Positions 128-63,022 of a stretch of DNA of 63,022 bases are shown in pieces; the first letter of the stretch is position 1; every line of letters begins with the position of its first letter. The notes beneath the pieces are model-generated. The model saw nothing but the letters and a program-made list of their open reading frames with translations. It was not told the origin of the DNA and did not search any database. The stretch comes from a virus (taxonomy: Duplodnaviria > Caudoviricetes), in the IMG/VR virus record IMGVR_UViG_3300037504_000243, positions 1 to 63,022 of that record. One strand, given 5' to 3'. The translations under genes and the position numbers were made by a program.

Positions 128-149
128 GGGTGGCAGTAACAATGGCTAG
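1..149 (+). CDS. terS: 3' end of terminase small subunit (poly-DT tail), continuing across the contig join
   Basis: GAT ACT repeats read DTDT...EGGSNNG* (TAG 147-149), overlapping the TerL ATG at 142. Confidence 0.7.
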   Translation, partial: TDTDTDTDTDTDTDTDTDTDTDTDTDTDTDTDTDTDTDTDTEGGSNNG

Positions 150-1458
150 TACCACTCTTATCCCAACCTCCTCATACCCTTTCCGCCTCAAGCACTACAT
201 CCACCCATATCAACGGCGGTTCATTGCCGACCAATCAAGGTTTCGTATATGGGTTGCCGCCCGTCAAGTCGGCAAGACCACTACCGTTGCCCTCGACGCT
301 ACCGAGGCTTGCTTGACTAAATCCAACAACTCAGTGATACTAGTATCCGCCTCCCAACCCCAGTCAAACGAACTGATAGACCGAGTGAAATTCTGGGTGC
401 GGGTCATGGAGGCGGCACTTGGCCAGGACCTCACCGTCCGAGAGAACATGAGCGAGGTAGTATTCCTGAACGGTAACCGGATCAAGGCCCTACCTGCCAA
501 CCCTAGAACCATCCGTGGTTACACTGCCAATGTAGTACTAGATGAGTTTGCCCAGCTCCATGGTCGGTTATCTCGCAAAATATGGGCGGCGGCTAGCTAC
601 ATCGCATCCAAGGGCGGTTACCGTATCACAATCACTTCCACCCCTCTAGGTAAATCAAACATCTTCTACGACATGTGGTTGAAAGATACTTGGTCAAAAC
701 ACCATACCGATATATACCAAGCAGTGGCAGAGGGACACGACGTAGACATTGACTCTCTCAAATCCATCAACCCCGATCCGCTCATCTGGTCTCAAGAGTT
801 TGAATGTCAATTCATTGACGAGGCCCATGCCCTCCTACCATACGACCTTATCACTAGCGCTGTTGACAACGACGCTGGCAACCCTCAACTATCAACAGGC
901 GGTGAGTACTACGTTGGAGTTGATGTCGGTCGACGCCATGACCTAACAGTAATCTGGGTATTAGAATCTCTCTCTCGTGGAGGCGTTCTAGCAACCCGCT
1001 CTATTACCACTCTCCGTGACACTCCCTTTCCGCAACAGCGCAAAGTGCTAGAATCAACCATCAGACGTTTCGACCCTGTTCGAGTGTGCATTGACCAGAC
1101 AGGGTTAGGTGAGGGACTAGTCGACGACATGGTTCAACTATTCGGTAGCACTATCGAAGGTGTCACCTTTACCAACAAGTCTAAGTCTAGCATGGCCATG
1201 GGGTTACGTCGTGTGTTCGATGAGAAGCGGATCACTATACCTAATGACCGAGATGTATTCACAGACTTGCACTCTATAGCCAAGACCACTACCTCAGCCG
1301 GTAACATCCGGTTTGACGCTGAGCGAAACGAGGACGGCCACGCTGACAGATTCTGGGCGCTGGCTCTCAGTGTTCATGCTACTGACAATGCCGCACCCAA
1401 CCCAGTAGTTGACACCGCCCAACCTCGGTCTATGTATAGAGAGCTGGCAGGGTACTAG
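130..1458 (+). CDS. terL: Terminase large subunit, Mu gp28-like (probable start ATG 142)
   Basis: Walker A RQVGKTT, PANPRTIRGY, Walker B VVLDEFA, STPLG, nuclease GVDVGRRHD and HADRFWALAL; GAGGG SD at 126-130. Confidence 0.93.
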   Translation: MAVTMASTTLIPTSSYPFRLKHYIHPYQRRFIADQSRFRIWVAARQVGKTTTVALDATEACLTKSNNSVILVSASQPQSNELIDRVKFWVRVMEAALGQDLTVRENMSEVVFLNGNRIKALPANPRTIRGYTANVVLDEFAQLHGRLSRKIWAAASYIASKGGYRITITSTPLGKSNIFYDMWLKDTWSKHHTDIYQAVAEGHDVDIDSLKSINPDPLIWSQEFECQFIDEAHALLPYDLITSAVDNDAGNPQLSTGGEYYVGVDVGRRHDLTVIWVLESLSRGGVLATRSITTLRDTPFPQQRKVLESTIRRFDPVRVCIDQTGLGEGLVDDMVQLFGSTIEGVTFTNKSKSSMAMGLRRVFDEKRITIPNDRDVFTDLHSIAKTTTSAGNIRFDAERNEDGHADRFWALALSVHATDNAAPNPVVDTAQPRSMYRELAGY

Positions 1459-1530: not shown

Positions 1531-3132
1531 ATGGCCAAGAAAAAACAAACTGAACCAGACATAGTCACCACCCCAGATAACGAGTTTGACATCACGGTCC
1601 ACGACAGCGCCGACACCTCCTCCTTGTCCCGCCCTGACTTATACGAGATGGATGGAGTGTTGGCCCAGTTCTCTGTGTCATTGAACAGAGCTGTTAGTCA
1701 AAGTGGTGGTGACGGGGTTGACCGCCCTGTATTACAAGAGATTGCTACTTACGACACCTCGCAAGACTACTATGACAACAACATTCTCCTGCCCGACCCC
1801 GACCAGGTCTGCAGCAAAGCTGGGTATGTTACCTATGACTGGATGACGGTGCTGCGGTTCCTCCTGACCGACCCCCATGTTTGGGCTTGCTATCAATCCC
1901 GCAAAGCCGCGACGTTAGGGCGTGAGTGGGAGATAGTCGAAGGCAGGTACGGGACTAAGCCTGACCAGTTCAAACTGATCAAATCCTGGTTCGAGTCTCT
2001 CGATGTCCGACAGGTAATCTCTGACATATTAGACGCGCCGTTCTTTGGTCACTCCCCTCTCGAAGTCATCTGGGCAGTCGACGATCTGTACTGGTGGCCA
2101 GAGTCAATCGTAGGTCGTCCGCCTGAGTGGTTCGCCTATGACTATCAAGGCAACCTCCGATACCTCTCTCGCGCCGCACTGATTAACGGGGAACTACTGC
2201 CACCTAAGAAATTCCTACTAGCTCGTCACCACGCCAACTACTACAACCCTTTTGGCGAACGACTACTCTCCCGCTGCTTCTGGCCTATCACATTCAAACG
2301 AGCGAGCCTCAAGTTCTGGGCCATATTTATCGAGAAATACGGTATGCCCTGGGCGGTGGGGAAGGTCAGTCGGGGGACACCACAGAAGGAACGAGAGGCG
2401 TTACTGTCAGAGCTGGCCAAGATGGTCCAAGACGCGGTAGGTGTGATCAACGACGACGAGTCGGTAGAGTTCATGAACGACAAAATTGGTGGGCGAGGTG
2501 ACGTTACTCGTTCTTATGAGGGGTTGACTAAACAGGCTGACACTCAGATTTCTAAAGCCATACTCGGACAGTCCCTCACTACTGATAGTGGGCAAGACGG
2601 GTCCGGGTCGTACGCACTAGGGAAAGTTCATTCGGATGTTCGAGCCGACCTGGTCGAGAGTGACGCCCGGATAGTGGAGTATGTAATGAATACTCTACTG
2701 GCCTGGGTAACGTCTCTCAATTTCAACACCAATGCCCCGGAGTTCAGGTTCTATGAGGAGGAGGCGGTACAGCGGGACCTAGCTGAACGAGATGAGAAAC
2801 TGGTCAACACCGGTTTAAGGTTTACCAGGGAGTACTACGAGGACAAATACAACCTTGACCCTAGTTGGGTAGCCGGAGTGGTTGATCCAAAGAGCGGTGA
2901 AGGTGGCGGTCAGAGTGTCACGGTTCCGGGTGGACCTAGTACCGCGCCTTATAAACTATCACCGCCTATCGACTTGTTACCAGCACCAAACGAAAGCGGG
3001 GGTCGCGGGTCCGGTGCGGTGGCCAACCCTGAGACCAACGACGACGACAGCAACCCTGGTCAATTTGCTGAACAGGGTTTAAAAAAAAATCGTGGGTCTC
3101 GACTCAGGCGGCTCAAGTCAGTCAGATGGTAA
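1531..3132 (+). CDS. Portal protein, Mu gp29/DUF935-like
   Basis: FWAIFIEKYGMPWAVGK, ISKAILGQSLTT, GSYALGKVHSDVR motifs; follows TerL. Confidence 0.9.
   Translation: MAKKKQTEPDIVTTPDNEFDITVHDSADTSSLSRPDLYEMDGVLAQFSVSLNRAVSQSGGDGVDRPVLQEIATYDTSQDYYDNNILLPDPDQVCSKAGYVTYDWMTVLRFLLTDPHVWACYQSRKAATLGREWEIVEGRYGTKPDQFKLIKSWFESLDVRQVISDILDAPFFGHSPLEVIWAVDDLYWWPESIVGRPPEWFAYDYQGNLRYLSRAALINGELLPPKKFLLARHHANYYNPFGERLLSRCFWPITFKRASLKFWAIFIEKYGMPWAVGKVSRGTPQKEREALLSELAKMVQDAVGVINDDESVEFMNDKIGGRGDVTRSYEGLTKQADTQISKAILGQSLTTDSGQDGSGSYALGKVHSDVRADLVESDARIVEYVMNTLLAWVTSLNFNTNAPEFRFYEEEAVQRDLAERDEKLVNTGLRFTREYYEDKYNLDPSWVAGVVDPKSGEGGGQSVTVPGGPSTAPYKLSPPIDLLPAPNESGGRGSGAVANPETNDDDSNPGQFAEQGLKKNRGSRLRRLKSVRW
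3075..3090 (+). other. Candidate -1 ribosomal frameshift site GGGTTTAAAAAAAAAT (portal to MuF)
   Basis: Four overlapping X_XXY_YYZ heptamers in the portal frame; the -1 frame is open from 3072 into ORF 3126. Confidence 0.6.
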
Positions 3133-6100
3133 CTAGTATGGTCAATGCCTCACGTACTACCATGACCAATATGCTATTACCGATTACTATGTTGGCCGGT
3201 AGCGTTGACGGGTATGATGCGTTTGATGATGGTATCAATGAGCTTGACCTGTCTGGTAGTGTGATCGAGATGTCTAGGGTGTTAGTGTCCGGGTTGATCA
3301 ATACGGCCCTGGTTGGGTATGTCCAAATTGAACGAGAGAGGTTAGGTGAGGGGAAAGAGTTCGATGACTGGGCAGGGAGTGTTTGGTACTTGGAGTTTGC
3401 AGACGACGCCGATTCTGGTCCAGGTGATCCTTACGATTTTAGAGAGACGGTAGGAAAACTTAGAAAAAGGTGGAAAAAGATATTTGGCGAAGGGTCTGCC
3501 GTTATGTTCGATAAGGATTTTAAATTGACTGGTCACACAAAGGAGCTTAACCCAGATCAACCCGAGTGGGTAGCGGGACCAGTGAAATACCGAGACGACT
3601 CCGAGAACTACACTAAGGTTAAGGGTATAGTAAGTATGCTAGAAGATTTGGTTTCTAGTTACGAGGACCACGAGTTGTCTCGACCCGGTTTCCATAAACT
3701 TAGGCAGTCGTACACGTTACCCGCTAAATTGGTTTTAGAGGATGAGGGGAGGGTTGAGTATGAGGACGTCATGGCTCTATCGGACGACGACAAACCCGTA
3801 ATGCGGAAAGCTCACGGGTACTTCAACCCTCTGACCGGTAAGGTTCATATAGCTGCAGACCCAAACCAGTCACCGATTTTTGGACGTGGATACAAATCAA
3901 AATACAACCGGAACGCTAGAGGACCAGATGAAGTTTGGACGGTTGATGAATCAGTATATGGCACTCTCTCTCACGAACTTTCACACCACCTTTATCACGG
4001 GATGGGAAACGGTACTGCAAGTGTGTGGAGAAAGATAAATGAGAACTTGCCGAAGGATAAAAAAATAATCAGTGGGTACGGTGACCAGAGCGTGTACGAT
4101 GGTTTACGTAGTGAGACAGAACTCTGGGCTGAGTGCTTCGCGGCCTACCAGCACCCTGATTATAAGCCTGGTACCTTACCTCCTGCGATAGAAGAGTTTG
4201 CTGCAGAAGTGGCCCAACACGGGGGGATAATTTCAGATGAACAGATTGTACGTAGGGACCAACTTTCCTTTGCTTCGAAGTCAAGCCGTAAACATCTAGG
4301 GGGGTACATCAGTCTCCTGGACTATATTGATTCCGGGAAAACAGCCGACGACGTACCTGTACCAGATAAGGCCTACGAGCACTCTATAGCTATAGAGGAT
4401 GAAGCTGTAAGGTTAGGAAAAAAGACCCGGTTGATAGATGCAGAGGGTGAGGGTAGTAAATGGTACTATGTCCTACCTAACGACGAAATGGAAGCTATCA
4501 ACTCTACGTCACTTGAACCTTTATTAGGCGGTGACGAGGTCGACAACAGTGTTACAGGTCAGTTACGCAGGGAATACGGCAAAGCTTATATGATGGAGGT
4601 CGAGACTACTATACCTGAGATTAGCAAATTATGGGAGGAGTACCACCACGAGGAGGACGTGACAGCTATTAGCAATAAGGCTGGCTTTGACCCTTTGGAC
4701 TCTTTTGCGGAGTCGTTCAACGCTTTCACTCACCCTAATTACAAACCTGGTACTTTACCTGCCAGAATGGAAAACTTTATCGATGAAGTTTTATCATCAG
4801 ACGACCCTTACGATACCGAGCTTGTAGATAGGATTAGAGAACGGGGTGAAGGTAGGGCGGACAGGTTGAAATCTCTCCCTGAAAAATACGTCACAGTCGA
4901 AAGCGGTGATGATGAGGTTGTGGTCAGTGATAGTGGGGAGGAGGTTGTGGATGACCCGCCGGAAGTAGATAGTAAGAGTAGGGCAAGGAGGCGCGTGGAC
5001 GATGGAGAAGAGGAGGACGGTGGTACCGAGGATGAAGGTGGTACCGAGGATGGAGGCGATGGTGACGACGACACCGACGGCGGTGATGACTTCAAAGTCC
5101 AACTAGGATTCAATACCCCTTTCAAGGACGCGATGACTTGGGCCAAGGCCCGAACCACAACTATCAACCCGGGGTCTTGGAAGGAGCTTAGTGCCGACGC
5201 GTACAGTCGTGCATTCTCAGTTGCCCACGTTACTAGCCAACAAGTACTAGACGACGTTAGAGAATGGTCGGAGAAAGCTCATACCGAGGGGTTGACGTTC
5301 AAGAAATTCCAGAACGAACTGGTGCCCAAACTCAAAGAGCGAGGGTGGTGGGCCACCGCCGGTGAAAGTGCCGTAGTGGAGCTTGAGGACGGGACCCTTA
5401 GAAAACGACTCAACATGTCTAGACTCGGTATCATCTATGACACTAACATTGCCGTGGCTAACGCGGTAGGTAGGTGGCAGAACATCGAAGAGAACCAGGA
5501 CCTCTGGCCTTATGTGCAGTATGAAGGTATTGACGATGAGATGACTAGACCTACACACCGGGTTTTGTTCGGCCGGGTGTTTAGGGTTGGGTCAGAGATA
5601 TTGGATTCGATAGCGCCGCCGAATGGTTTCAGGTGTAGGTGTAGTCTGACGCAGGTTGACGACGACGAACTATTTGAGATACTTAGTGAGACAGGGTTTG
5701 AGTTGGACCAGTTACCTAGCGACGCGGCCCCGGATGAAGGGTGGAATCACAACCCTGGCAAGGCCGGGATGTTGGGCGGTTGGGAACCAGAAGAGGATGT
5801 ACCAGAGTTGCCAGGGAAGTTAAAGGATGATCTGAGTGACCTTATGGATAGTCTAGGTGATACCGATGATACTGATGTTGTTGCTAAGACAGGCGACACT
5901 GACACGGAACTATATTTAGGCGACCTGGTACCAGACCTTGATGTAGACGATCTGGACTTAGGTGACTTGGTATTCGACTCCGAGGACGGAGATGATACTG
6001 ACGCGGTCAACTTAGACGATACTGACACGGTTAGTTTAGGTGATACAGATAACGTTGATGTTGACACGGTGACAGGTAGTGAGAGTGACCAGAGCGGCCT

Positions 6101-6932
6101 CGGTGGCGATGATGACGTCATTGAAACTTCTCCCCTTGTTACACCTTTTATTCCTCACGACTGGGATGATGATTTCGTCACGTATGAAAAAACCCCGGAC
6201 CGCCCTGGTGTGACTGAGACCTATTACATTGAGACCGCCGATGGTAAATCTGGGTTATTCAAACCAAGAGGTAATAAAGGGGCCTTGCAAAAAGATGGGT
6301 TATTTGCGTCGGAACGCGAGGTCGCAACCAGCGCTATAAACGACTACCTAGGTTTTGATGTAGTACCACGTACTAGAATGGTTAAGCATCCTAAACACGG
6401 AGTAGGTTCATTTCAAGAGTGGGTCAAAGACGGTAGATTACAAGGTCAGGAGCCAACTGACAATATCAATCCTGAGGACTTTTATCAGGCGGCAATAATA
6501 GAGCAACTTATAGACAATCGGGATAGGCACAGCGGCAACTTTCTTATGACTGGTGCATACGATTCATCTAGTGGTAAGACGCGTCTACACTTGATAGATA
6601 ACGGAATGTCTTTTCTAGATCGTATGGGTTCAATACTTCCTCCACCTTACCTAGTTGAAGATGATTATAACATTGATGATGGTAAAGAGTTTGAGAAGGG
6701 TCTAGACGATGAGTACAAAAGGGATTTAATAGCCAAGGTCAAAGCTATTAAAATTGACGACTACTTGTCTGATTTAGTCGACGAGGAGGTCTATGGTCCG
6801 GACGCAGACAATGCTAAGACGAACGTGCGCGATCTGTTTGAAAAACGTAAGGAGGTACTCATCGAACGTATTGAAGCAGGAGCAGTTATTGAAGAGTCTA
6901 ACCCAGATAGGTGGTCGAGGTACACGAGATAG
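3126..6932 (+). CDS. MuF (Mu gp30/SPP1 gp7-like) head protein with zincin-like repeats and C-terminal HipA/PI3-PI4K-like kinase domain
   Basis: MuF motifs DDEMTRPTH...PPNGFRCRC and DEGWNHNPG; HELSH at 3972; kinase motifs GLFKP, EREV, GSFQEWV, DRHSGN, LIDNG. Confidence 0.82.
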   Translation: MVTSMVNASRTTMTNMLLPITMLAGSVDGYDAFDDGINELDLSGSVIEMSRVLVSGLINTALVGYVQIERERLGEGKEFDDWAGSVWYLEFADDADSGPGDPYDFRETVGKLRKRWKKIFGEGSAVMFDKDFKLTGHTKELNPDQPEWVAGPVKYRDDSENYTKVKGIVSMLEDLVSSYEDHELSRPGFHKLRQSYTLPAKLVLEDEGRVEYEDVMALSDDDKPVMRKAHGYFNPLTGKVHIAADPNQSPIFGRGYKSKYNRNARGPDEVWTVDESVYGTLSHELSHHLYHGMGNGTASVWRKINENLPKDKKIISGYGDQSVYDGLRSETELWAECFAAYQHPDYKPGTLPPAIEEFAAEVAQHGGIISDEQIVRRDQLSFASKSSRKHLGGYISLLDYIDSGKTADDVPVPDKAYEHSIAIEDEAVRLGKKTRLIDAEGEGSKWYYVLPNDEMEAINSTSLEPLLGGDEVDNSVTGQLRREYGKAYMMEVETTIPEISKLWEEYHHEEDVTAISNKAGFDPLDSFAESFNAFTHPNYKPGTLPARMENFIDEVLSSDDPYDTELVDRIRERGEGRADRLKSLPEKYVTVESGDDEVVVSDSGEEVVDDPPEVDSKSRARRRVDDGEEEDGGTEDEGGTEDGGDGDDDTDGGDDFKVQLGFNTPFKDAMTWAKARTTTINPGSWKELSADAYSRAFSVAHVTSQQVLDDVREWSEKAHTEGLTFKKFQNELVPKLKERGWWATAGESAVVELEDGTLRKRLNMSRLGIIYDTNIAVANAVGRWQNIEENQDLWPYVQYEGIDDEMTRPTHRVLFGRVFRVGSEILDSIAPPNGFRCRCSLTQVDDDELFEILSETGFELDQLPSDAAPDEGWNHNPGKAGMLGGWEPEEDVPELPGKLKDDLSDLMDSLGDTDDTDVVAKTGDTDTELYLGDLVPDLDVDDLDLGDLVFDSEDGDDTDAVNLDDTDTVSLGDTDNVDVDTVTGSESDQSGLGGDDDVIETSPLVTPFIPHDWDDDFVTYEKTPDRPGVTETYYIETADGKSGLFKPRGNKGALQKDGLFASEREVATSAINDYLGFDVVPRTRMVKHPKHGVGSFQEWVKDGRLQGQEPTDNINPEDFYQAAIIEQLIDNRDRHSGNFLMTGAYDSSSGKTRLHLIDNGMSFLDRMGSILPPPYLVEDDYNIDDGKEFEKGLDDEYKRDLIAKVKAIKIDDYLSDLVDEEVYGPDADNAKTNVRDLFEKRKEVLIERIEAGAVIEESNPDRWSRYTR

Positions 6933-6977
6933 AGGTAGATACTGTGATTATTTATCTACAAGGAGACACTAACGATT

Positions 6978-7259
6978 ATGGTTATAGAGTTTTACAGGTG
7001 GGTTGCAAGGGGTAATGAACTTCTTGGGTCGATAACGTTAAACCCGGATAGCACTTTTAGTGTGTCAGGTGAAATCATAAAGTCTATGTTCGACCAATGG
7101 TCTGAGGAGGGTTTTGTTGACCTAGACTACTTCACAGCTAACCAGGTTATTATACCAGAAGAGGACCCTCTGGAGTTTATGCAAGCTGTATTAAAGCGGT
7201 TTCCGGGTGGTATGTTTTGGGCGGTTGAAGTCGATAACGAGAACAGGAGACCGAGTTAG
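6978..7259 (+). CDS. Small acidic protein, candidate immunity protein
   Basis: AGGAG SD; directly follows the MuF-kinase gene. Confidence 0.55.
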   Translation: MVIEFYRWVARGNELLGSITLNPDSTFSVSGEIIKSMFDQWSEEGFVDLDYFTANQVIIPEEDPLEFMQAVLKRFPGGMFWAVEVDNENRRPS

Positions 7260-7485: not shown

Positions 7486-8046
7486 ATGGCTGAGCCGTTT
7501 ATTAGAGTTGACGTAGAGACTAAGGGTGTTAACAAATACCTGCGACGTATCGAGTCTCGCTTTCCTAGCCAGGTTAAAAAAGCGCTGTCAGCTATCGGGA
7601 CAATTCTAGTTAAGTCCATCAAACGCAACTTCAAAGTTGGCGGTAGGCCGGTTAAGTGGAAACCCTTATCCCCGGTCACATGGGAGATAAGACAAAAAAA
7701 GGGTTGGACCACACCTACCCCGCTTACCGCTAGAGGTGACCTCAAGAATAGTATTAATTTCAACGTCACTAAGGACACGGTTACGGTTAGTCCTAACAAA
7801 GAGTATGCGGCGGTGCAGCACTTCGGGGCTAAGAAAGGGTCGTTGTTTAAAGGTAGTGTTACAGTCGGTCCGTATACTAGAAGGGTACCGGGTGGTGGTA
7901 AGACTACAGTGCGTAAACACGAGAGGCGAATGGTTGCTCCTTGGGGTGACATACCAGCTAGGCCTTTTATGTTAGTACAACGTGAGGACTTTGTCAAGAT
8001 TCGAAGAGTGCTAGGAAAAATAGTTGAAAACTCTACCAGAAAATAG
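7486..8046 (+). CDS. Virion morphogenesis protein, Mu gpG/gp31-like
   Basis: KWKPLS, GDLKNSI, YAAVQHFG, IPARPFM motifs. Confidence 0.88.
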   Translation: MAEPFIRVDVETKGVNKYLRRIESRFPSQVKKALSAIGTILVKSIKRNFKVGGRPVKWKPLSPVTWEIRQKKGWTTPTPLTARGDLKNSINFNVTKDTVTVSPNKEYAAVQHFGAKKGSLFKGSVTVGPYTRRVPGGGKTTVRKHERRMVAPWGDIPARPFMLVQREDFVKIRRVLGKIVENSTRK

Positions 8047-8123: not shown

Positions 8124-9446
8124 ATGCCGTTAAAGAGATGTGAGGTTGGTGGGGTTAGAGGTTGGAAATACGGCGACCAAGGGAAGTGCTATACTGGCCC
8201 GGGTTCTAAAGATAAAGCACTCGCTCAAGCATTGGCTATAGGTGAGGGTAAACTACCTAAAGATTTTTCGGGAGGCGACGTTATGAGAAACAGTAGAAAA
8301 AAAGGTACTGTGGATTTCAAAGGGTTCGAGGATTGGGTGGAAATTTTCGCAGGAGGGAAACAGACTGACTCGTATGGTCGAGAGTGGGATGGTGACAAAC
8401 TAGTCGACCAGGCGGTGTCCACTTTTAACGCCGACGACTTTGAACCGCCCGCCGTAATCGGCCACCCCCAAGAGAATGCCCCGGCTTATGCTTGGGTTGA
8501 GGGAGTTAGGCAGAGGATGCGCGATGGTAAGAAGGTGCTAGAGGCGAAGTTCAAGCAAGTGGTACCCGAGTTCGCGCAAATGGTGGAGAAAGGATTGTTC
8601 AAGAAACGTTCAGCAAGCTTTTACCCAGACGGTAGGTTACGGCACGTCGGGTACTTAGGAGCGGCCCCGCCCGCTGTTAAGGGGCTGAAGGATATAGCGT
8701 TTGATGATGGTAACGGGGACGTAGCCAATTTTGAAGAAGAGATCAACAGGAGTAGTATTATGGATAAGGGTAAGGACAAAGACGGGATCGTCCAGGCGCT
8801 GCTTAAGATCGGGCGCAAGGACGTGGCGGATCTGGTTCGCGGCTCGCAGTTTAACGAGGAGGATAATGGTCAAACCGCTAGCAACCAGGCAGGGGTTGAT
8901 GCAGAGGCGCTGGCCGATGCTTTGATTAAAAAACTCGGACTTCAAGCACAGCACAGCTCTGACCCGGTTGGTGACCAAGGCGATGAAGGTAACGGTACCA
9001 ATGCTGGTGTTGGTACTGCTACCCCGGCATTTAACGAGAGGGAAATCAGGCAGGATGAGAGGCGCAAGGCGGAAGAACGGTTGATGGGTGAGATAGGTCA
9101 GATCAAGGCTGAGGCCAGGTCCAAAGAACTCCACGCTCTGGTCAACGACAAAATTCGAGACGGTATTATCCCGCCGGTTTTCAAAGACAGCGGGTTAGTG
9201 GAGTTCCTGGAAAGCATCGACAACCAGAACCAACCGATCGAGTTCACCGAAGGTGCCCAGGTTAAACAAGTCGACCCGGTGTCCATGTTCATCGGGTTCA
9301 TGGAAAAGGCCAGCGCAAACAAACTGTTTAGCGAGTTTGCTCAATTTGCTACGGCGGACGCGGGAAAGAACGACAAGGACGACCAGCTAGGTAAGACCAT
9401 TGCCAGCTTTTCTCCTTTGTCCAAAGACAAACAACAGAGTCACTAG
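8124..9446 (+). CDS. Prohead protease/scaffold, Mu gpI-like
   Basis: PAVIGHP, PAYAWVE, FKKRSASFY, LRHVGYLGAAPPAVKGL; charged helical C-terminal half. Confidence 0.85.
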   Translation: MPLKRCEVGGVRGWKYGDQGKCYTGPGSKDKALAQALAIGEGKLPKDFSGGDVMRNSRKKGTVDFKGFEDWVEIFAGGKQTDSYGREWDGDKLVDQAVSTFNADDFEPPAVIGHPQENAPAYAWVEGVRQRMRDGKKVLEAKFKQVVPEFAQMVEKGLFKKRSASFYPDGRLRHVGYLGAAPPAVKGLKDIAFDDGNGDVANFEEEINRSSIMDKGKDKDGIVQALLKIGRKDVADLVRGSQFNEEDNGQTASNQAGVDAEALADALIKKLGLQAQHSSDPVGDQGDEGNGTNAGVGTATPAFNEREIRQDERRKAEERLMGEIGQIKAEARSKELHALVNDKIRDGIIPPVFKDSGLVEFLESIDNQNQPIEFTEGAQVKQVDPVSMFIGFMEKASANKLFSEFAQFATADAGKNDKDDQLGKTIASFSPLSKDKQQSH

Positions 9447-10018: not shown

Positions 10019-11020
10019 ATGGACAATCTTTTTAAAAGTAGAGTATTAACGGCCGCAATCAACGAAATGTTTTCGCCCTCCATGATGATTTACCGTACCT
10101 TGTTTGCTGGTAAAGAACACATGGAGGCGACTGACCGCCTGGCCTTTGACGTTATCACCGGAAGCGAGGACGTGCTAGGTGAGATTGCGGTGGAGGCCCC
10201 GGCTACTGTAACCGATCACAATAGCCGTAAGACTGTGACCGTGACCGCGCCTAGGTTGGCTCAGAAGCGCTTCATCTCTAGTGCTAGTCTCAATGCGCTG
10301 AGGGGGTACGGGGAACCGGTAGCTACTGCCCAGATGCAGCAAACCGTTGCCCGCGAACTGCAGGACATGAGGCTCAAACATGATCGCACCTTGGAGATGT
10401 GGGCGGCGGACGCGATGAAGGGTCAGATCTACGACAATGATCGGTCCACTGTGTTGGTGGACTACAACATGTCAGATAGTCACAAACCTACTCTGTCTGG
10501 TACCGAGTTGTGGACCAACGCGTCTAGCGACCCGATCGAGAACCTCCGAACTTGGAAGCGTATGATTGAGGATGACAGCGGCACCGGTATTGACTCGTTC
10601 CTTGCTTTTGTCGGGTTCAATGCTATGACTGCACTACTCGATCATGACAACATCAGAGACTATTTCAAGTACACTGAGGGTAGCCGGATTGCCCAGATGG
10701 GCCGGATCAGCAACGTTGCTGAGGTGGACATGAAAGAGTATAACGGGAGTTACAAAGACAAGAATAGTACCAGGCGTCGGTTTATCCCGGAGGACTACAT
10801 TATGTTGGTCGGGGTAACCCCGGACATAACTGATATGCCGTACGCGCCGGTTGTGGACGACGACGCGCCCGGCGGGGTTGGTAACTCCGGTGCGGGCCGG
10901 GTCTTTTTCAGCAAGTCCTGGAAAGAGAAGGACCCGAGTGGGCGATGGATCAAAACCGAATCTCGACCTTTACCGGTGCTGCAACGTCCTGGCTGCGTTG
11001 TCTACGCTAAAGTGGTCTAG
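10019..11020 (+). CDS. Major capsid protein, lambda gpE-like
   Basis: LTAAIN, RTLEMWAADAMKG, W....SDPI..L..W, FSKSW...DPSG...ESRPLP. Confidence 0.9.
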   Translation: MDNLFKSRVLTAAINEMFSPSMMIYRTLFAGKEHMEATDRLAFDVITGSEDVLGEIAVEAPATVTDHNSRKTVTVTAPRLAQKRFISSASLNALRGYGEPVATAQMQQTVARELQDMRLKHDRTLEMWAADAMKGQIYDNDRSTVLVDYNMSDSHKPTLSGTELWTNASSDPIENLRTWKRMIEDDSGTGIDSFLAFVGFNAMTALLDHDNIRDYFKYTEGSRIAQMGRISNVAEVDMKEYNGSYKDKNSTRRRFIPEDYIMLVGVTPDITDMPYAPVVDDDAPGGVGNSGAGRVFFSKSWKEKDPSGRWIKTESRPLPVLQRPGCVVYAKVV

Positions 11021-18645: not shown

Positions 18646-19022
18646 TATGTCTAGATGAGTTGGATAATGAGAGGGACGAGAGGTACCTTGATATGGCCCA
18701 GGCTGTAAGCCTAGGGGCATGGGGGGATAAGAAAGCCTGGAAGAATGTCGAGAACCAGATAAAAAGTATTAAGAAGGCTAGAGACTTGAAGTGGAAAGAA
18801 CCGGTTATGCCTAGTGAGAGCAGTAGTGACGGTGGTAGTAATGCTGACAGTAGCGGCACTAACCGAGGGAGTGATAAAAAGACGACCAAAGCACCGCCTC
18901 ATGTTATACGCAAACAAGGGTTTGGATATAACGAGGTAAGGGTGAAGATAAGACGCGGCAAGATGGATGAGGTACCAGGGCGGGTAGAGCCGCTAGGTGG
19001 TCCACCGGATAAACAGGAGTAA
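18582..19022 (+). CDS. Tail assembly chaperone -1 frame extension (gpGT-like)
   Basis: -1 frame open from T TTT TTC (18498-18504) to 19022. Confidence 0.6.
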   Translation: MAEVCGRHGSGALNYGFEFFLICLDELDNERDERYLDMAQAVSLGAWGDKKAWKNVENQIKSIKKARDLKWKEPVMPSESSSDGGSNADSSGTNRGSDKKTTKAPPHVIRKQGFGYNEVRVKIRRGKMDEVPGRVEPLGGPPDKQE

Positions 19023-21534
19023 TGTTGTGGCTGGTAATGCACAGGTTGACGATGTTGTTATAAATTTTACCACCCAAACAAAAGGGGTGAAAGCAGCGCT
19101 ACAGCGAGTAGCGAGAAACATCAAGAAAGTGGGGGATGCTAGTAAGAAGGTTACTAGAGATGTTGACTCCCTAAACGATTTTATTACAGGTCTATCTGGC
19201 CGGTTACAAAGTTATTACTCCGTAGCACAGATCGCAGTCGGTGCCCTTCAAAAAGCGGTAGGTGGCCTAGCGTCTGAGTTTGTCAACGTCGCGGATCAAC
19301 AAGACCGGTTTGTTAATAAGCTGAATGCGTTGACTGACGGTAAAGGTGTTGAGACGTTTGAACGGTTGAATGACTGGGCGCTGGAAATGCCGGTCAATAC
19401 AGCCGAAGCAATCAACGCCTTTACCACTATGAAAGCTTACGGCCTAGACCCCACCCTCGAACAAATGGAAAGCCTGGTTGATGTTAGTGCGGTTTTCGGG
19501 GAGGAGGCTATACCTAGTGTGGCAAGGGCGCTTGGTCAAATGGCGTCGCTTGGGAAGGTGAGTGCCGAGGAGATTAATCAATTAGCTGAGGTAGGTATTA
19601 ACGCTCGAAAAATACTGAGTGATGCCTTTGGCATGACAGTCGAGGAGATACAAAAAAGCAACATCGCTATTGACGAAGTTATACAAGCTATCTGGAATGG
19701 GCTTAAGAGAGATTTTGGAGGTGCGGCTAAAGGTGCAATGGACCAGTGGGGGTCGTTGATAGCCGTGGGCGTTTCGTATTGGAAGGAGTTCGTTAGACTA
19801 GTGGCCAATACGGGCTTATGGGATATGATAAAAGAAAGATTCCGTAGTTTCATCGATTCCATAAGCGAGTTTGTTTCGGGCGGCGGTGCGGCTAAATACG
19901 CTAGAGCTATAGGTGGAGAGCTCATGCGTATAGTCGATATTATCAATATTACGATAGCGGGTATTACGGGTAAAGACGGGATAGCGGGAGCGCTTGATTT
20001 AGTACTAGTTGGAGTAAAAGCCTTGGCCGCTCCGGTAGCGGCGGTGGGTAGATTCTTTTTGAGATGGAAGGTTATTTGGGCGGCGCTGAAGGTTGCGTGG
20101 GGTGAGGTGACCACGTTCATTGCAGATAAGTTGTCATCCGTTGCAGGCTTCTTTTCCGATCTCTCGGAGAGTGTTGGGCTAGAGGGGACTAGTGAAAAGT
20201 TTGACAAGGTGTCTGAGAGCTTGTCAAAGTGGGCGGAGGAGCAAGAGAAAATTAACCCCAGTCGTATGGCTGAGTACGATCACGCTATCGAACAAATAGT
20301 GGCCCTAGAAAATAAGATGACTGAGACGATTGATACTAGAGGTAAGCTTGTTAAAGCTCAAGAGGAAGAGCGGCAGGTAGCGGAAGAGCTAGCCAAAGCT
20401 CTCGAAAAACAAGAAGCGGCACAACAAAAACTAAACCAGACACAGTCAGGGGACCAGTATATAAAAAACGCGGAGGCAGCGAAACAGGCACAAGCTGAAG
20501 TGGTTGACTTACAGGAGAAACACAATAAAGCACTTGCAGAGGTTAAGAAATCAAGAGGTGTGCAAGGTGTAGGTGAGGATCTAGTTAAGGAGGCAGCAAC
20601 CTTTAAGGCCGCTTTGAATATTGAAGAAGAGGCTTACAAAAATCTGGTCGCGGTGCAGCAAGACAAGGCTGCGACCGATGAACAGCTGGCCACTGCCCAG
20701 TTAAAGTTTCAGAAAGCACAAGAGCAAACAGTAGCACTAAGAGAGAAACAGTTTGCACAACAGGTGAAGGAGTCAGAGGCGGCAAAGAAAGAGGCACAAG
20801 CTAAAGCTAAGGCGGCAGAGGCTACACGTAAACAGGCGGAAACTAGTGGTAAAGCCGCTACTAAACAAAGCGAGTTTGGCAACGCCGCCATCCAAGCAGC
20901 TGACAGCGTTGACAACCTCAGTAAGGTGTTAGGTGGTCAAACTGGAGTAGCGCAACAATTATCAGGGGTGATTGAGAGTCTAGTGGTTAAGTACCGAGAC
21001 CTAGCTACAGCGGCTAAGGAGGCGGCGGCAAACGGTATTAGTGGAGGTGGGGGTGATAGCGCTACTGTCAGCGTTCAAGGCAAGGCAAGAGGAGGGATTC
21101 TCAGCATGGCCGAGGGCGGCGCGCTCCCTGGCAGTAGCCCCACCCCCACCTCCGACAACTTGTTGTTTGCTGGTACCGCTGGTGAATATGTACACCCAGT
21201 ATCGTCTGTTAAGTACTACGGCGAACAGTTCATGGACGCGGTGAGAAAAAAGCTGATACCTAGACCTAAAGGGTATGCTTTCGGCGGGTTAATGAGAGCA
21301 CAACGCGGGACTGGTAAAGAGGTTATGTGGTCTGCATTACAAGGCGACCTCAGAAAAAACTGGGGTGGTTGGGGTGCAATGCAGGACTTTGGCCGGGTGG
21401 ATATTAATATGGGTGGTCAGGAAATACCGGTGTGGACTACTAGTGACTATAGCGAGTTACTGAAACAGGCAGTGAAGGACGGTCAGAGTCGAGGAAATAA
21501 ATGGTTTGGCATGTTACCGGACGCGGCTGGGTAA
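18997..21534 (+). CDS. Tape measure protein (probable start GTG 19027)
   Basis: ARALGQMASLGKVSAEEINQLAE tape-measure domain; Ala-rich coiled coil. Confidence 0.92.
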   Translation: MVHRINRSNVVAGNAQVDDVVINFTTQTKGVKAALQRVARNIKKVGDASKKVTRDVDSLNDFITGLSGRLQSYYSVAQIAVGALQKAVGGLASEFVNVADQQDRFVNKLNALTDGKGVETFERLNDWALEMPVNTAEAINAFTTMKAYGLDPTLEQMESLVDVSAVFGEEAIPSVARALGQMASLGKVSAEEINQLAEVGINARKILSDAFGMTVEEIQKSNIAIDEVIQAIWNGLKRDFGGAAKGAMDQWGSLIAVGVSYWKEFVRLVANTGLWDMIKERFRSFIDSISEFVSGGGAAKYARAIGGELMRIVDIINITIAGITGKDGIAGALDLVLVGVKALAAPVAAVGRFFLRWKVIWAALKVAWGEVTTFIADKLSSVAGFFSDLSESVGLEGTSEKFDKVSESLSKWAEEQEKINPSRMAEYDHAIEQIVALENKMTETIDTRGKLVKAQEEERQVAEELAKALEKQEAAQQKLNQTQSGDQYIKNAEAAKQAQAEVVDLQEKHNKALAEVKKSRGVQGVGEDLVKEAATFKAALNIEEEAYKNLVAVQQDKAATDEQLATAQLKFQKAQEQTVALREKQFAQQVKESEAAKKEAQAKAKAAEATRKQAETSGKAATKQSEFGNAAIQAADSVDNLSKVLGGQTGVAQQLSGVIESLVVKYRDLATAAKEAAANGISGGGGDSATVSVQGKARGGILSMAEGGALPGSSPTPTSDNLLFAGTAGEYVHPVSSVKYYGEQFMDAVRKKLIPRPKGYAFGGLMRAQRGTGKEVMWSALQGDLRKNWGGWGAMQDFGRVDINMGGQEIPVWTTSDYSELLKQAVKDGQSRGNKWFGMLPDAAG

Positions 21535-62215: not shown

Positions 62216-63022
62216 ATGACACTCAAACGGCCTGACTCATTCTGGGAGCACATACGCGCCCGCTATGAGGCCGGGGGACCGCGCAACACCCAGTCCGCTC
62301 TGGCCCGTGAGTTTGGCGTCTCACATACCGCCATCAGAAAACACCGTGTCCAAGAGAACTGGGTGGACCCCATCAGAGACGAGGTCAAACACACCGCCGA
62401 CGCCATGCTCAACGGTCTGTGTGGCTACTCCCCCGACCTTCACGACACCGACATTGGTACTGGCGACCTCAATATAGTAGGTCTGACCGAGAAGGACATC
62501 GAGGCAGTGTTACCTATGCCTTCATCCGACCCCGCCCTTAACCCTGACCAACCCTTGACCCAAGCTGAACGAGACCGTCAAGGTGTGATACAACGAGAGG
62601 CTAGGAAACGAGCATTAATAAAACTACGGCATCGTAAGGAGTGGAGGATACCGCTTCAACTCTTCCATGCCGCTAAGAAAGATTTCGATACCGGCGACCT
62701 TATCGACGCTGGAAAAAAAATGGACGGAGCGAAACGAGCGGCCGAGACTTTGGCTCTCATTCAGTCAAATGAAGGCCGGCTTTGGGACCTTAACCGAGCT
62801 AGCGACGACTTTGTCCAGGATATGACAGTAGCCGCCCGAGACCTGTTGAGGGATAGTGGTTTTACTCTTAATCTACCAAGCAGTAGTATTGAGAATGATA
62901 CTGATACTGATACTGATACTGATACTGATACTGATACTGATACTGATACTGATACTGATACTGATACTGATACTGATACTGATACTGATACTGATACTGA
63001 TACTGATACTGATACTGATACT
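62216..63022 (+). CDS. terS: Terminase small subunit (absent from the ORF track; runs off the end)
   Basis: GGAGG SD and ATG 62216; HTH W..IRARYEAG...QSALAREFGVSHTAIRKH....NW; HRKEW, AKRAAETL; open into (DT)n; precedes terL if circular. Confidence 0.8.
   Translation, partial: MTLKRPDSFWEHIRARYEAGGPRNTQSALAREFGVSHTAIRKHRVQENWVDPIRDEVKHTADAMLNGLCGYSPDLHDTDIGTGDLNIVGLTEKDIEAVLPMPSSDPALNPDQPLTQAERDRQGVIQREARKRALIKLRHRKEWRIPLQLFHAAKKDFDTGDLIDAGKKMDGAKRAAETLALIQSNEGRLWDLNRASDDFVQDMTVAARDLLRDSGFTLNLPSSSIENDTDTDTDTDTDTDTDTDTDTDTDTDTDTDTDTDTDTDTDTDT
62896..63022 (+). repeat. (GATACT)n microsatellite, right contig end
   Basis: T plus 21 perfect GATACT units. Confidence 0.98.

Follow-up and report, generated by a model that had tools for sequence, protein, structure and literature searches.

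A run of nine adenines at the portal-MuF junction of a phage genome as a probable slippage site for a portal-MuF-cargo fusion

The virus record IMGVR_UViG_3300037504_000243 (Caudoviricetes) was analysed over its whole length of 63,022 bp, referred to here as the window. Its left part carries a portal gene and, in the -1 frame relative to it, an open reading frame (ORF) coding for a protein with a MuF domain and additional enzyme-like domains, and the two ORFs overlap around a run of nine adenines (A9) that is the subject of the present analysis. The features of this junction are the following.

1531-3132, plus strand: portal ORF (P0001), 533 residues, codon starts at 3n+1, a complete Portal_Mu core followed by a Gly/Ser/Pro-rich linker
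3052-3079, plus strand: predicted hairpin, -12.4 kcal/mol, outer stem of 7 bp, 3' end one base short of the A run
3064-3072, plus strand: 'FAE' motif (TTT GCT GAA), three codons ahead of the A run
3069-3071, plus strand: TGA closing the -1 frame upstream
3072-3125, plus strand: -1 frame open without a start codon, overlapping the end of the portal ORF
3075-3090, plus strand: four overlapping X XXY YYZ heptamers, namely G GGT TTA (3075-3081), T TTA AAA (3078-3084), A AAA AAA (3081-3087) and A AAA AAT (3084-3090)
3081-3089, plus strand: A9 run, the proposed slip site
3096-3335, plus strand: putative C-terminal helical segment of the portal, read in the -1 frame (P0002 residues 9-88)
3126-6932, plus strand: ORF 3126 (P0002), 1,268 residues from ATG 3126, -1 relative to the portal frame
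3130-3132, plus strand: portal stop TAA, 14 codons past the A9 run

In the portal frame, positions 3076-3090 read GGT TTA AAA AAA AAT, and the four slippery heptamers on which the original prediction was built are indeed all phased to that frame. They form the sole run of four consecutive in-frame heptamers among the 16,519 codon positions of 49 ORFs, in which 57 in-frame heptamers were counted and, otherwise, only three runs of two. The A9 run is the only homopolymer of at least nine in the 63,022 bases. Its existence is unsurprising, since at least one A9 was also present in 32 out of 100 shuffles of the genome; what is surprising is its position, as the stretches in which a -1 shift fuses neighbouring genes total 318 nucleotides, or 0.5% of the genome. 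Besides, AAA and AAG are used almost equally for lysine genome-wide (420 versus 438 codons), so that codon usage does not impose the run.

Because of the TGA at 3069-3071, a productive shift must fall between position 3072 and the portal stop. As predicted, the -1 frame is open just past this TGA and runs from 3072 through ATG 3126 to 6932, and a shift inside the run joins 519 and 1,281 residues into a product of 1,800, the size that had been announced as about 1800; the +1 frame at the slip site stops at once. ATG 3126 is located 4 nucleotides before the portal stop (ATGGTAA). The earlier remark that ORF 3126 has no clear Shine-Dalgarno (SD) sequence could be extended to the five in-frame ATGs at 3126, 3138, 3162, 3171 and 3189, none of which has an SD-like motif upstream, whereas 38 of the 58 naive ORF starts of the genome do. 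No promoter- or terminator-like site was found between 2700 and 3500.

The portal ORF itself is incomplete at its C-terminal end when compared with its stand-alone relatives. Its core matches PF06074 with 339 bits (cutoff 23.9), residues 107-442 being aligned to positions 3-336 of the 336 of the model. In stand-alone portals, judged from the C-termini of relatives and from the consensus of an 81-sequence hidden Markov model (HMM), the 'FAE' motif precedes a C-terminal helical segment of about 80 residues, which is carried by phiE255, a Pasteurella phage and some 80 metagenomic portals of 470-530 residues, and which is taken in by the matched range of the solved portals 8rka and 9khx. It is found in frame in 108 of 170 related portal entries; in the window portal it is not, the frame ending 18 codons past FAE with a basic, non-conserved tail.

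The original prediction had likened the start of ORF 3126 to the helical C-terminus of DUF935 portals, a resemblance to which HMMER, hhalign and a frame control all lend support. Across the junction, alignment to a 509-column profile of 30 stand-alone portals with hhalign places the portal ORF on columns 19-395 and the -1 product on columns 433-504 (E 0.011 in a single comparison), or on columns 448-504 with E 5.6e-4 when the homologue from the related contig L010, presented below, is included. The -1 segment is therefore collinear, filling columns left empty by the portal frame (396-509 expected). When the 120 N-terminal residues of the -1 product are scored with the segment HMM, built from the 81 sequences, they reach 15.5 bits. 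In the frame control, all three frames of 45 short portals were scored: the window and L010 reached 11.9 and 19.1 bits in their -1 frames, four genuine segments 60-78 bits, and the other 129 frames at most 4.1 bits or no match. These tests were targeted ones; the -1 segment was not reported by a full-length HMM search at database thresholds. Finally, 137 of the 150 best among 3,842 matches to the L010 ORF begin at the MuF domain (first 20 residues), so that a portal-tail segment is not the normal N-terminus of a MuF protein. From these weak but collinear matches, the missing C-terminal segment of the portal appears to be encoded by the -1 frame, where the MuF ORF begins.

Relatives of the locus were considered through 170 portal locus entries and through 160 loci fetched with a family alignment. 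Only one of these 160 loci, the 4,368-nucleotide viral contig L010 (59% GC), shares the layout of the window, and a long A run recurs in it: an A10 (1315-1324) directly follows 'EFAY', the portal stops 10 codons further on, and the -1 frame, which opens within the run and extends to 2495, encodes the portal tail (29% identical to that of the window) and then directly MuF (43%), without the insert of about 575 residues that separates the two in the window. L010 is an independent contig from a different sample and its portal is 50% identical to the window portal. Its -1 frame has no start codon until GTG 1422, which comes after 35 codons and already within the conserved segment, and the database gene model (P0136) starts even later. 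Among the 109 loci in which portal and MuF are separate ORFs, a homopolymer of at least nine lies in the overlap only in the window and L010.

Other relatives encode the two proteins as a single ORF, which is a common arrangement in the family. All nine matches of the search for longer proteins carry both PF06074 and PF04233, eight of them being 35-48% identical to the window portal, and these whole fused proteins measure 945-1,196 residues; such fusions also account for 10 of the 120 near matches listed and for 12 of the 170 locus entries. No such single-ORF fusion exists in the window, where the TAA at 3130-3132 ends the portal frame and MuF lies in the -1 frame.

The run recurs at the corresponding site in several of these relatives, as listed here.

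L010, viral contig: A10 directly after 'EFAY', out of frame
L017: A10 directly after an FAE-like motif, in frame, fused, 741 residues
L018/L019: A9 directly after an FAE-like motif, in frame, fused, 913-914 residues
L014: A9 directly after an FAE-like motif, in frame, fused, 734 residues
L062/L074: A9 directly after an FAE-like motif, in frame, stand-alone
L089: A8 after an FAE-like motif, in frame, stand-alone

Dereplication of the 170 entries at 80% identity left 119 clusters, 84 of which, taken as lineages, allowed the motif to be located. Within 60 nucleotides after FAE, a run of at least eight adenines was found in 6 of these 84, against 0.39 expected from the background of each locus itself (p 4e-6), and a run of at least nine in 4, against 0.077 expected; the site was set by hand for the window and L010, and since the window had been picked for its run, the counts without it are 5 and 3, respectively. 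The run is also the longest homopolymer of the locus in L010, L014, L017, L018/19, L074 and L095. As is typical of a slippage site, its retention in diverged relatives goes further than coding alone would demand.

A few more relatives deserve mention. P0019, a portal 55% identical to that of the window, ends 12 residues past 'DFAEKK' and may represent a third out-of-frame case. P0016 is, like P0019, a short portal ending just after '..EKK', and in the MuF proteins P0248 and P0242 the first 35 residues or so resemble the last helix of the portal tail; judging from their sequences, all four may be additional examples of splitting or slippage. P0032, from L091, was considered as a parallel and rejected: it ends soon after 'FAE..KK', but neither an A run, nor MuF, nor a tail in any frame is present. 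Past this short portal, L091 has at 5215-5560 three near-identical units about 170 nucleotides apart, beginning ATGAAGGGGTTC, and lacks a MuF gene. Separately, a second A9 was noticed at the start of the MuF gene ('...DHFKKKVKLP...') in the stand-alone relatives L020 (5475) and L093 (5448).

The cargo encoded past the portal tail consists of the following parts.

3372-5096, plus strand: insert of about 575 residues between portal tail and MuF
3972-3986, plus strand: single HExxH motif within the insert
4164-4181 and 4743-4760, plus strand: duplicated '...YKPGTLP' module within the insert
5097-5783, plus strand: MuF (Mu gpF / SPP1 gp7-like) domain
6093-6929, plus strand: putative C-terminal PI3/PI4-kinase-like domain, with DRHSGN at 6522-6539

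The MuF assignment is firm (PF04233, 47 bits against a cutoff of 29.6; phrog_220, E 5e-48). The insert has no usable Pfam match, and weak Atlas leads to metallopeptidase families (0.91-0.93) suggest, as a lead only, that it may be a metallopeptidase. For the C-terminal part, PF00454 covers the catalytic-loop region with DRHSGN at E 0.024 (15 bits, below the cutoff of 27.1), the Atlas score is 0.96 with 196-202 shared features, the ten best family-bearing matches all belonging to the same family, and a sequence search against the PDB returned no match; a PI3/PI4-kinase-like domain, possibly a virion cargo, is thereby suggested. ORF 3126 also contains acidic repeat linkers at 5010-5056 and 5990-6046.

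In the light of these data, slippage on the A run, transcriptional and/or by -1 ribosomal frameshifting, probably leads to a majority of short portal and a minority of a 1,800-residue portal-MuF-cargo fusion, the portal gene and the MuF-cargo gene then constituting one recoded unit. Standard decoding would give the 533-residue short portal, in which core and linker are followed by 14 out-of-frame residues. By the transcriptional route, the RNA polymerase would add one A at the A9 run in a fraction of events; by the ribosomal route, the ribosome would slip by -1 on A AAA AAA or on the adjoining heptamers. Both routes would end in the same 1,800-residue protein, with, in order, the portal core, the C-terminal helical segment, the peptidase-like insert, MuF and the PI3/PI4-kinase-like domain. 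In mixed dodecamers, a small number of cargo chains would then sit inside the head, at the crown of the portal. Such a low cargo number would fit the 1-2 MuF copies per capsid reported for SPP1, which could be reached with a slip rate near 10-15%. Either the head protease (8124-9446) or the HExxH module might then set the cargo free, to be ejected along with the DNA.

The original prediction described the event as a -1 frameshift; the layout it relied on stands, its ribosomal nature is less certain, the run of 9-10 adenines being suited to transcriptional slippage equally well or better. Of the elements of a -1 ribosomal site, the in-frame X XXY YYZ heptamer and a -1 frame open across it are present, and a stimulator was not found, whether as a downstream stem-loop or pseudoknot or as an SD-like sequence about 10-14 nucleotides upstream, the only G-rich stretch near the run being CAGGG at 3073-3077, 3-4 nucleotides before A9. 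Rfam yielded a single sub-threshold chance match and none reaching threshold. A/T runs of such length are known to cause slippage of the RNA polymerase, as in Thermus dnaX and in insertion sequences, and the coding-strand run of at least about nine that this requires is there, as A9 in the window and A10 in L010. Transcriptional slippage, possibly together with ribosomal slippage, is therefore the favoured route, because the recurrent feature is a stretch of 9-10 adenines rather than a bare heptamer, and because nothing downstream folds better than shuffled sequence. The hairpin just upstream of the run (z -2.41; 6 of 200 shuffles fold as well) could be a slippage stimulator, as a lead only.

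Several points weigh against slippage at this site, and part of them are shared with the alternative explanations that follow. The downstream folds do not differ from shuffles (z +0.88, -0.07 and +0.04), leaving the site with no stimulatory RNA structure downstream, and the upstream hairpin is not conserved, a comparable one being found in only one of the five relatives folded (L014, z -2.14). The portal-tail matches are weak (11.9-15.5 bits; E 0.011), and the hhalign probability for that of the window is 3.7%. A single out-of-frame relative, L010, was examined at the DNA level. In addition, the length of the A9 run rests on assembled contigs from one sample, and four in-frame lineages share the same A9/A10 run.

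This last point leads to the alternative that survives best, although it is held to be rather unlikely: the locus would be a plain in-frame fusion gene, of which the A run was miscounted by one base or exists as a natural one-base deletion variant. Long homopolymers are a classic site of indel errors and mutations. With one extra A, the window aligns codon for codon with L018 (V/L-K-K-N/K-S), so that a miscount or an indel would look identical to what is seen, and in-frame fusions having A9 or A10 at the same site are provided by L014, L017 and L018/19, which belong to a wider set of plain fusions (P0004-P0011, L014-L019). Broken portal loci are also met elsewhere, two of the 170 entries, the L132 and L147 portals, showing a +1 frame change within the core domain and being possibly pseudogenes or assembly errors. 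However, a second assembly, probably built from the same data as the record, also has A9 without any indel, the two assemblers thus agreeing at about 30x word depth, and L010 presents the same -1 state in an independent contig. A plain fusion would moreover leave unexplained why 9-10 adenines are kept in genomes of 46-59% GC, with AAA about as frequent as AAG here. Lastly, a run restored to frame would slip too, and two products would therefore still be expected.

According to another explanation, regarded as improbable, portal and MuF would be independent genes derived from an ancestral fusion that was split upstream of the portal tail, ORF 3126 being translated by termination-reinitiation at ATGGTAA, its portal-tail segment docking on the short portal in trans, and the A9 run being an incidental Lys-Lys. 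Since ATG 3126 overlaps the portal stop, sitting 4 nucleotides before it, reinitiation could indeed yield a free ORF 3126 product, which is a further point against the slippage reading. Overlap of the portal and MuF ORFs is the rule in split loci (77 of 109), and in many lineages the portal is genuinely short, no tail segment being detectable. Nevertheless, the in-frame ATGs have no SD, L010 is free of starts for 35 codons past its run, its conserved sequence beginning ahead of the first start codon, the longest homopolymer of the genome falls precisely within a 54-nucleotide stretch, and runs at the post-FAE site are enriched across the family. As for DNA-level phase variation, with A9/A10 flips in the population and lineages making either only the short portal or only the fusion, it is very unlikely, even if in-frame and out-of-frame states both occur among relatives with the same run, since the contigs show a single state (which minor variants could escape) and every infection needs a virion with a working portal.

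Extended to the family, the slippage reading suggests a bolder proposal, which is put forward only tentatively: the post-FAE poly-A run might act as a dial on the ratio of plain to extended portal, in either polarity, coupled with the delivery of one to three copies of cargo. In its in-frame versions, mostly full-length or fused portal would be produced together with a truncated minority, and in the out-of-frame ones, the window phage and L010, mostly short portal would be accompanied by a few subunits bearing MuF and enzyme domains. The portal vertex would thereby be equipped with a 140-kDa peptidase/kinase-like cargo, in one to three copies, for delivery to the host.

With regard to known systems, programmed transcriptional slippage on at least nine A/T is exemplified by the tau/gamma products of Thermus thermophilus dnaX and by similar cases, in which the length of the slippage run matches that of the RNA-DNA hybrid. 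The window resembles dnaX by its coding run (9-10 adenines, L010 included), by two proteins sharing their N-terminus and by the lack of an elaborate downstream structure; it differs in that the longer product would join two virion proteins, portal and MuF, and an enzyme cargo, and in that slippage is here a prediction. Frameshifting in phage structural genes is known from the T7 capsid proteins 10A/10B and, as reportedly described by Xu and colleagues in 2004, from the lambda G/GT tail chaperones. In these two systems, as proposed for the window, it is recoding that gives a constant, minor share of a structural protein its C-terminal extension, but they rely on ribosomal heptamers and concern tail-chaperone or capsid genes.

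Constitutive, single-ORF portal-MuF fusion genes have been published for Microbacterium phages of clusters EA3/EA5/EA8 and EB (PMC7302621). These and the fusions recovered here (P0004-P0011, L014-L019) share with the window the order of portal core, FAE, C-terminal segment, MuF and optional domain; being single ORFs, they would have MuF on every subunit, whereas the window needs a -1 shift. The window cargo is also far larger, with about 1,281 residues past the slip site compared to the 945-1,196 of whole fused proteins. In temperate phages with MuF polymorphic toxins (Jamet et al. 2017, PMC5576092) and for SPP1 gp7, muf is likewise located directly downstream of the portal gene, and MuF bears a variable C-terminal enzyme domain, to which the putative kinase-like domain of the window would correspond. 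Neither the HExxH insert N-terminal of MuF nor the PI3/PI4-kinase-like C-terminus figures among the terms of PMC5576092, the main text of which contains neither 'kinase' nor 'frameshift'. In the literature covered, which did not extend to the supplements of PMC7302621 and PMC5576092, in-frame fusions were found and no portal-to-MuF slip site.

The surroundings of the locus correspond to a Mu-like head module at the left end of the genome.

130-1458, plus strand: large terminase
7486-8046, plus strand: Neck1-like protein
8124-9446, plus strand: head maturation protease (phrog_976, E 2e-54)
same module, plus strand: decoration protein
10019-11020, plus strand: major head protein
18997-21534, plus strand: tape measure protein

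Genes for a DNA polymerase, a helicase and a ribonucleotide reductase are on the opposite strand. The record begins and ends (1-127 and 62896-63022) with an identical, perfect 127-nucleotide array of a hexamer, (ATACTG)x21, which looks like a circular assembly closed within a tandem repeat just upstream of the terminase gene. Another tandem repeat, (AACGAT)x8.8, occupies 1468-1520, between the terminase stop and the portal start. The sequence was traced to one tidal-flat metagenome run, stored as contigs, which is probably the source sample; no RNA run was listed as containing it. Megablast of positions 1531-7000 against phage records gave no match, and scans of viral and metagenome contigs with single proteins recovered only portals at 29-38% identity; the contig scan with the ORF 3126 protein gave no match, and its N-terminal 420 residues, used as a query, matched only themselves.

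For annotation, the consequence is that gene callers, in the window as in L010, leave the portal truncated, begin the MuF ORF at an internal Met and leave conserved coding sequence unannotated. The PI3/PI4-kinase-like domain is, for its part, flagged as a possible virion cargo. More generally, how minor head proteins and injected effectors are counted into a capsid is poorly understood. If the slippage reading is correct, a slip site tying MuF and its cargo covalently to some of the portal subunits would constitute a simple and testable stoichiometry rule, and the portal would join the short list of phage structural genes using recoding. Should the poly-A run moreover act as a dial across the family, it would offer a covalent, recoding-based answer to the question of how MuF reaches one or two copies per head.

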